Shown here: positions 28,558-28,960 of the stretch, piece by piece
Layout of the letters: the number at the start of each line of letters is the position of its first letter
Numbering within the stretch: the first letter of the stretch is position 1
Notes under the pieces: model-generated
What the model was told of the DNA's origin: nothing
Databases searched by the model: none
Seen by the model: the letters and a program-made list of their open reading frames with translations, nothing else
Position numbers and translations under genes: made by a program
DNA from: an uncultured Rikenellaceae bacterium
Lineage (GTDB): Bacteria; Bacteroidota; Bacteroidia; Bacteroidales; VadinHA17
Assembly (NCBI GenBank): GCA_964553395.1
Contig: CAZKMH010000003.1
Location: forward strand, 1 to 28,960
Length of the DNA stretch: 28,960 nucleotides
Direction of reading: 5' to 3'

Positions 28558-28960
28558 ATGAGTAAAACGATTTCCGATTATGAACTCATTCAGAGATTCA
28601 TAAAAGGTGAGCAGACCTGCTTTGAGCAGATAATCCACCGTCATAAAAATAAAGTTTTTGCGTATATAAGTTTATATATACGCGATCAGGCACTTGCTGA
28701 AGACCTGTTTCAGGATACCTTCATGAAAGTGATCCAGTCCGTTAAAACCGGCAAGTACCAGGATAACGGAAAGTTCATTTCATGGGTAATGCGTATAGCC
28801 CATAACCTTATAATCGACCATTTCAGGCGGATCAATGATTCCTACGGGTATCCCCGGGGGGACATTGTGCTCCGCGCAGTCGCTGAGCTATTTCAGCAGG
28901 TCATCAGGAAACCTGATACGGCAGTCAGGTACGGCGGGGAGGAGTTTGCCGTGATTGTCC
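28558..28960 (+). CDS. ECF sigma-70 factor N-terminal part (region 2) joined in frame to a GGDEF-domain fragment; runs off the window end
   Basis: My translation: [143 protein letters not shown] and [16 protein letters not shown] are ECF region 2 motifs; NDSYG..GD and RYGGEEF are GGDEF motifs. Missing from the ORF track because it has no stop codon. Confidence 0.85.
   Translation, partial: [134 protein letters not shown]

Follow-up and report, generated by a model that had tools for sequence, protein, structure and literature searches.

Contigs that join two genomes in de Bruijn-graph metagenome assemblies carry an exact word common to both genomes, and their breakpoints lie at the edges of this word. 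GC content and depth jump at the join, a short dead-end tail terminates such contigs, and the two parents can be recovered separately. Two protein families meet at the locus described here. Group 4 (ECF-type) sigma-70 factors of Bacteroidota combine region 2 and region 4 in one protein of approximately 170–200 aa and lack regions 3 and 1.1. GGDEF cyclases of the PleD/WspR type with an RxxD I-site carry a DID motif followed by GGEEF, with the I-site five residues upstream of the latter.

We analysed a stretch of 28,960 nt (the window), at the 3' end of which a sigma factor fragment runs in frame into part of a GGDEF domain. The locus resembles chimeric contigs in every one of the properties above and no substantive difference was seen, the uncommon detail being that the shared word stems from a convergent protein motif, IDHFRRI. 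Since this motif is common to two unrelated families, a misjoin stays in frame and resembles a domain fusion. We are nearly certain that the junction is artefactual in one way or another, counting a misjoin in the assembly graph and a chimera of the library together, and a graph misjoin at a shared k-mer very likely produced the apparent sigma/GGDEF fusion. The features concerned are:

25609..28401, minus strand: 930-aa ORF, presumably uvrA; the same ORF lies in the metagenome contig L001 at 8391-11183
28402..28557, no strand: AT-rich intergenic stretch (23-35% GC) between the divergently transcribed uvrA and sigma genes; collinear with the contigs L001 and L002
28558..28835, plus strand: 5' part of a sigma-70 family gene, ECF-type; codons 1-92 and two bases of codon 93, region 2 only
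28813..28835, plus strand: shared stretch ATCGACCATTTCAGGCGGATCAA, 23 nt, the same in both parent genes and encoding IDHFRRI in each
28836..28960, plus strand: foreign tail from the middle of a GGDEF gene, 125 nt, with the I-site RKPD and the GGEEF motif

The reading frame from the ATG at 28558 to the window end contains no stop and encodes 134 aa starting with MSKTISDY. Pfam detects two domains in this ORF: aa 26-91 match Sigma70_r2 (profile 2-67 of 71, E 2.5e-16), and aa 86-134 match GGDEF (E 5.7e-16). In the latter case the alignment is confined to profile positions 40-88 of 161, such that the N-terminal part of the domain is absent. Sigma region 4 was not found by the Pfam scan in the ORF as assembled. 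Direct reading gives RKPD, the five residues TAVRY and then GGEEF, as well as an Ile (codon ATA) two positions before the D of DHF, where GGDEF domains have an Asp. With an incomplete domain and Ile at the first metal-binding Asp position, the ORF lacks what characterises an active diguanylate cyclase. All of these descriptive items, i.e. the in-frame ORF, the absence of region 4 from its visible part, the spacing between RKPD and GGEEF, the Ile and the missing N-terminal part, had been stated in the original prediction and were confirmed by translation, Pfam and direct reading.

The hand-counted GC contents of about 39% and 59% on the two sides were likewise reproduced, with computed values of 39.2% for 28561-28800 and 58.9% for 28837-28960. 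A GC content of 58% is reached by only 0.17% of all 124-nt segments across the 28,960 nt. We rejected the jump as proof by itself: the most GC-rich patch of the window (19613-19687, ~60%) is equally rich and belongs to a genuine gene, that of a D-2-hydroxyacid dehydrogenase (19507-20427), which is collinear with L001, so that a local GC peak alone is no marker of foreign DNA here. The 23-mer at 28813-28835 has no second copy or near match (≤3 mismatches) within the window.

The two parent genes

An exact search of JGI metagenome contigs for the 23-mer returned three contigs, L001, L002 and L003, none of which contains the chimeric junction. L001 and L002 carry the sigma side. For L001 (Ga0105095_10000026, 48,475 bp), positions 1-11617 align by BLAST to window positions 17219-28835 with 99.73% identity over 11,617 nt and without gaps, and the alignment stops exactly at 28835. 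Past the 23-mer both contigs read GCAGATGAATACAATC; the continuation 3' of the 23-mer, as read in the contig comparison, is GCAGATGAATACAATCTC. In L001 the gene extends from 11340 to 11927 and encodes a complete sigma factor of 195 aa, for which Pfam reports Sigma70_r2 (aa 26-91), Sigma70_r4_2 (aa 130-169, E 5.1e-13) and Sigma70_ECF. Region 2 of this true gene ends with IIDHFRRIK. The window retains region 2 only because its contig leaves the sigma gene at 28835; regions 2 and 4 in one protein of the size of ECF-type factors were thus found for the L001 gene and not for the window ORF.

In comparison with Group 4 sigma factors the L001 protein is alike in its length and in having regions 2 and 4 without region 3 or 1.1, and it matches, besides Pfam Sigma70_ECF, also TIGR02937 (101.6 bits, cut-off 42.9). 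It stays under every NCBIfam equivalog cut-off, the best score being obtained for PRK12513 (168.9 bits vs 206). No anti-sigma gene is located directly downstream of the sigma gene in L001. The left-hand parent is an ordinary sigma factor of the ECF type and is widely conserved in Bacteroidales-type MAGs.

Upstream of the sigma gene, the 930-aa ORF contains two ABC-ATPase Walker motifs and zinc-finger cysteines, and we take it to be uvrA. It is the genuine upstream neighbour and ties the sigma side to a Bacteroidales genome. The intergenic stretch 28402..28557 is genuine as well and presumably holds the promoters of both uvrA and the sigma gene. Downstream of the sigma gene in L001, the ~640 nt up to rsmE (11928-12563) contain neither a long ORF nor an Rfam match. 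With Rfam, no family reached its gathering threshold in the window, L001 or L003.

The GGDEF side is found in L003 (Ga0105101_10084242, 1,544 bp), whose positions 1508-1361 match window positions 28813-28960 with 100% identity (BLAST). Upstream of the 23-mer L003 differs from the window and reads CTGTCTATCATAATGATTGAT. The tail thus belongs to a contig with its own upstream sequence, and its distribution across samples is another one (see below), in line with the origin from another organism that had been put forward. The GGDEF gene in L003 reads MIDIDHF, i.e. the metal-binding Asp is present, it contains GGEEF and it runs on to a stop codon. It matches the GGDEF profile from 31 to 161 (E 1.7e-33, Pfam), its N-terminus being cut by the contig end. 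The Ile in place of Asp and the missing N-terminal helix in the window ORF hence result from the join, the Ile being the ATA codon of the sigma gene. The earlier suggestion of a sigma fragment tied to an inactive, c-di-GMP-binding domain is not supported.

Set against PleD/WspR-type cyclases with an RxxD I-site, the L003 gene is alike, with DID...GGEEF and RKPD five residues upstream, and the C-terminal half of its Pfam domain is complete. It differs from them in that only 36 nt of L003 precede the shared word, so that the known part of the gene leaves out the N-terminus and any sensor domain. The right-hand parent is a GGDEF cyclase of the ordinary kind with an I-site. Among the 120 best relatives of the L003 GGDEF fragment in a protein search, the nearest one, from JGI/ENA contigs, is only 62% identical. 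A taxon for the tail was also sought among the named matches, but these (Planctomycetota, Omnitrophica, Rhodoferax and 'bacterium', 39-46% identity) are too distant. Directly downstream of the GGDEF gene L003 carries a 205-aa ORF (448-1065, minus strand) without a Pfam family.

On either side of the 23-mer the very first base already separates the parents, with A vs T before the word and G vs T after it: in the sigma parent the word is preceded by CTTATA and followed by GCAGATG, in the GGDEF parent by ATTGAT and TGATTCC, respectively. The common stretch is therefore exactly 23 nt long, and the BLAST matches to L001 and L003 overlap solely at 28813-28835. The stretch that had been called ambiguous between the two families thereby coincides with the identity of the two parents.

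Two further observations concern the origin of the word. A search of one genome per GTDB species gave a single occurrence of the 23-mer, in the sigma factor gene of a Chryseobacterium MAG, and the word is thus natural to region 2 of Bacteroidota sigma factors; the GGDEF parent was not found in this search. In one of the metagenome runs considered below (X6) three other GGDEF genes match 28813-28848 with two mismatches, such that the word is also near the common nucleotide form of DIDHF(K/R)RIND.

Distribution of both sides in metagenome runs

The stretch represented by the window occurs in freshwater-sediment and soil metagenomes. We compared the Logan contigs (k=31) of eight public runs of sediment metagenomes, labelled by X and a number; these contigs lose rare variants and show presence and not absence. 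In X1, X2, X3, X5, X6 and X15 the sigma-side contig reaches 28835 and then enters GCAGATGAATACAATCTCAAATGAT, the same continuation as in L001. In X6 this contig is 16,022 nt long with a depth of 20.9. The sigma-side contig of X4 ends at 28834, and X13 contains only a divergent relative over the sigma-side stretch. Beyond IDHFRRI, normal sigma sequence thus follows in L001, L002 and six runs, an outcome that had been named beforehand as one that would speak against a real fusion. The junction in the form of the window, across 28812-28836, is present in no Logan contig (k=31) of the eight runs.

The depths on the two sides were as follows:

X1: sigma-side depth 9.03, tail depth 3.8
X2: sigma-side depth 13.6, tail depth 2.7
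X3: sigma-side depth 12.3, tail depth 0
X4: sigma-side depth 6.98, tail depth 0

The depth falls at the junction, by an amount that varies between samples, which had likewise been named as an outcome against a real fusion. Only two runs have contigs on the tail, X1 (222 nt) and, for part of it, X2 (151 nt), and in both the L003 upstream sequence precedes 28813. Of L003 itself only fragments with a depth of 2-4 are found, in X1, X2 and X5, and it is absent from X3. The uncoupled depths of the sigma side and the tail show that the two belong to populations with independently varying abundance.

These data bear on a real fusion, in which a rare Bacteroidales subpopulation would have recombined with foreign DNA from another phylum at the 23-nt microhomology. 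We consider it highly improbable. Both halves score as real domains and the frame is kept across the junction; the kept frame is no argument, however, since the 23-mer common to the two genes is translated into the same seven residues in each. For a rare variant, absence from the Logan contigs is no proof of absence; yet the parents are intact, the junction was found neither in the eight runs nor in the three JGI contigs and the one GTDB genome, and the two sides are uncoupled in depth. Recombination at a microhomology, which the original prediction had kept as its second option, thus received no support.

Two minor observations concern the Bacteroidales population. Each of the runs X1-X4 deviates from the window at position 27912, so that none of them is demonstrably its source. 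X1-X3 contain in addition a 125-nt contig that shares 28509-28538 and 28601-28622 with the window, with 66 nt replacing the intervening 62 nt. The replaced interval includes the sigma start codon, and the 125-nt contig is 1.2-2.2 times as deep as the main sigma-side contig. A second relative, in many cases the more abundant one, thus seems to carry a sigma gene whose 5' end is divergent.

Protein architecture and origin of the junction

If real, the fusion would mean that sigma region 4 had been lost to a partial GGDEF domain, leaving a sigma fragment on an I-site-bearing, catalytically dead domain. We searched the 134-aa chimeric protein against 5.8 billion proteins. Its best 120 relatives are all sigma factors of 181-198 aa that align to ~72% of the query, and those named by NCBI are mostly Bacteroidales MAGs, the remainder being Bacteroidia or Bacteroidetes. 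Their identity over the local alignment is 75-92%. Regions 2 and 4 are both present in 119 of the 120, and PF00990 (GGDEF) in none. Conversely, the 120 proteins closest to the GGDEF parent all lack PF04542 (Sigma70_r2). The architecture of Sigma70_r2 plus GGDEF in one protein, a search for which had been proposed, is accordingly found in none of the 240 listed relatives, and we rejected a real fusion since the search with the chimeric protein returned only normal sigma factors among the best 120. The conservation of the sigma factor also speaks against a real fusion, as the loss of region 4 would destroy its function.

Both parents exist separately, the breakpoints fall on the edges of the 23-nt identity, sigma side and tail are uncoupled in depth and the junction was found in no independent contig. 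An assembly chimera at a short shared k-mer, the preferred reading of the original prediction, is thereby borne out by the recovery of both parents. The true sequence at this position is very likely the ordinary 195-aa ECF-type sigma gene of a Bacteroidales bacterium. This gene has the 23 nt in common with a GGDEF gene from a rare and unrelated member of the same sediment community. The assembler would have crossed from the Bacteroidales genome into the other genome via the shared word. Coverage would then have given out after about one read length, leaving an in-frame but fictitious 'fusion' of sigma region 2 and GGDEF.

The switch probably occurred in the de Bruijn graph at small k. For a JGI-sequenced dataset the Code Availability statement gives MEGAHIT with '-k-list 23, 43, 63, 83, 103, 123' (PMC6646334), and the contigs matching the window bear JGI 'Ga' identifiers. 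The shared 23 nt equal the smallest k of that list, although the link to this particular contig is circumstantial.

The tail extends 125 nt past the word (148 nt with the word), which is about one read length, and position 28960 is therefore probably the contig end. The same length, taken as one Illumina read, would also fit a single chimeric read that extended the contig tip. In this scenario the join would have formed in vitro, when the library PCR switched templates at the 23-nt microhomology, before the chimeric read or molecule extended the contig. The lack of the junction in all independent assemblies agrees with it too. Such an origin is nevertheless unlikely: k-mers seen once are normally discarded by assemblers, and a shared length of exactly 23 fits a graph word size better.

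With a misjoin in the assembly graph there would be no sigma/GGDEF fusion, no new architecture and no biological importance to the junction. Its consequences concern quality control: positions 28836-28960 should be cut off before the contig is annotated or binned, and any 'Sigma70_r2 + GGDEF' protein called from the contig should be removed from protein databases. The case illustrates how a short motif of two unrelated families can yield an in-frame misjoin that is mistaken for a new architecture.

Other genes in the window

The claim that the genome contains siaBC holds at the family level, for the following two genes:

6476-7033, plus strand: SiaB-family protein kinase (NF038262, 149.6 bits, cut-off 85; Pfam DUF6272)
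7082-7462, plus strand: SiaC-family phosphoprotein (PF09345, E 2.4e-47; under the NCBIfam SiaC equivalog cut-off)

Neither a SiaA phosphatase nor a SiaD cyclase adjoins this pair, and the nearest gene downstream lies on the opposite strand and encodes an ABC transporter of 1023 aa. The SiaB/SiaC genes are real but unrelated to the GGDEF tail.

Just downstream of clpB (10856-13447) lies a tandem of a STAS-domain gene (111 aa, E 3.2e-15) and an Hpt-domain gene (120 aa, E 5.7e-06) on the minus strand (13454-14152), an unusual pairing of partner-switching and phosphorelay domains. The stretch 23564-25560 contains three ORFs of 171 aa (minus strand), 303 aa (plus strand) and 147 aa (plus strand) without an NCBIfam family. 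For the 171-aa ORF, the one of the three scanned against Pfam, no match was obtained. The 303-aa and 147-aa ORFs have, as judged by eye, N-termini that resemble signal peptides or those of lipoproteins.
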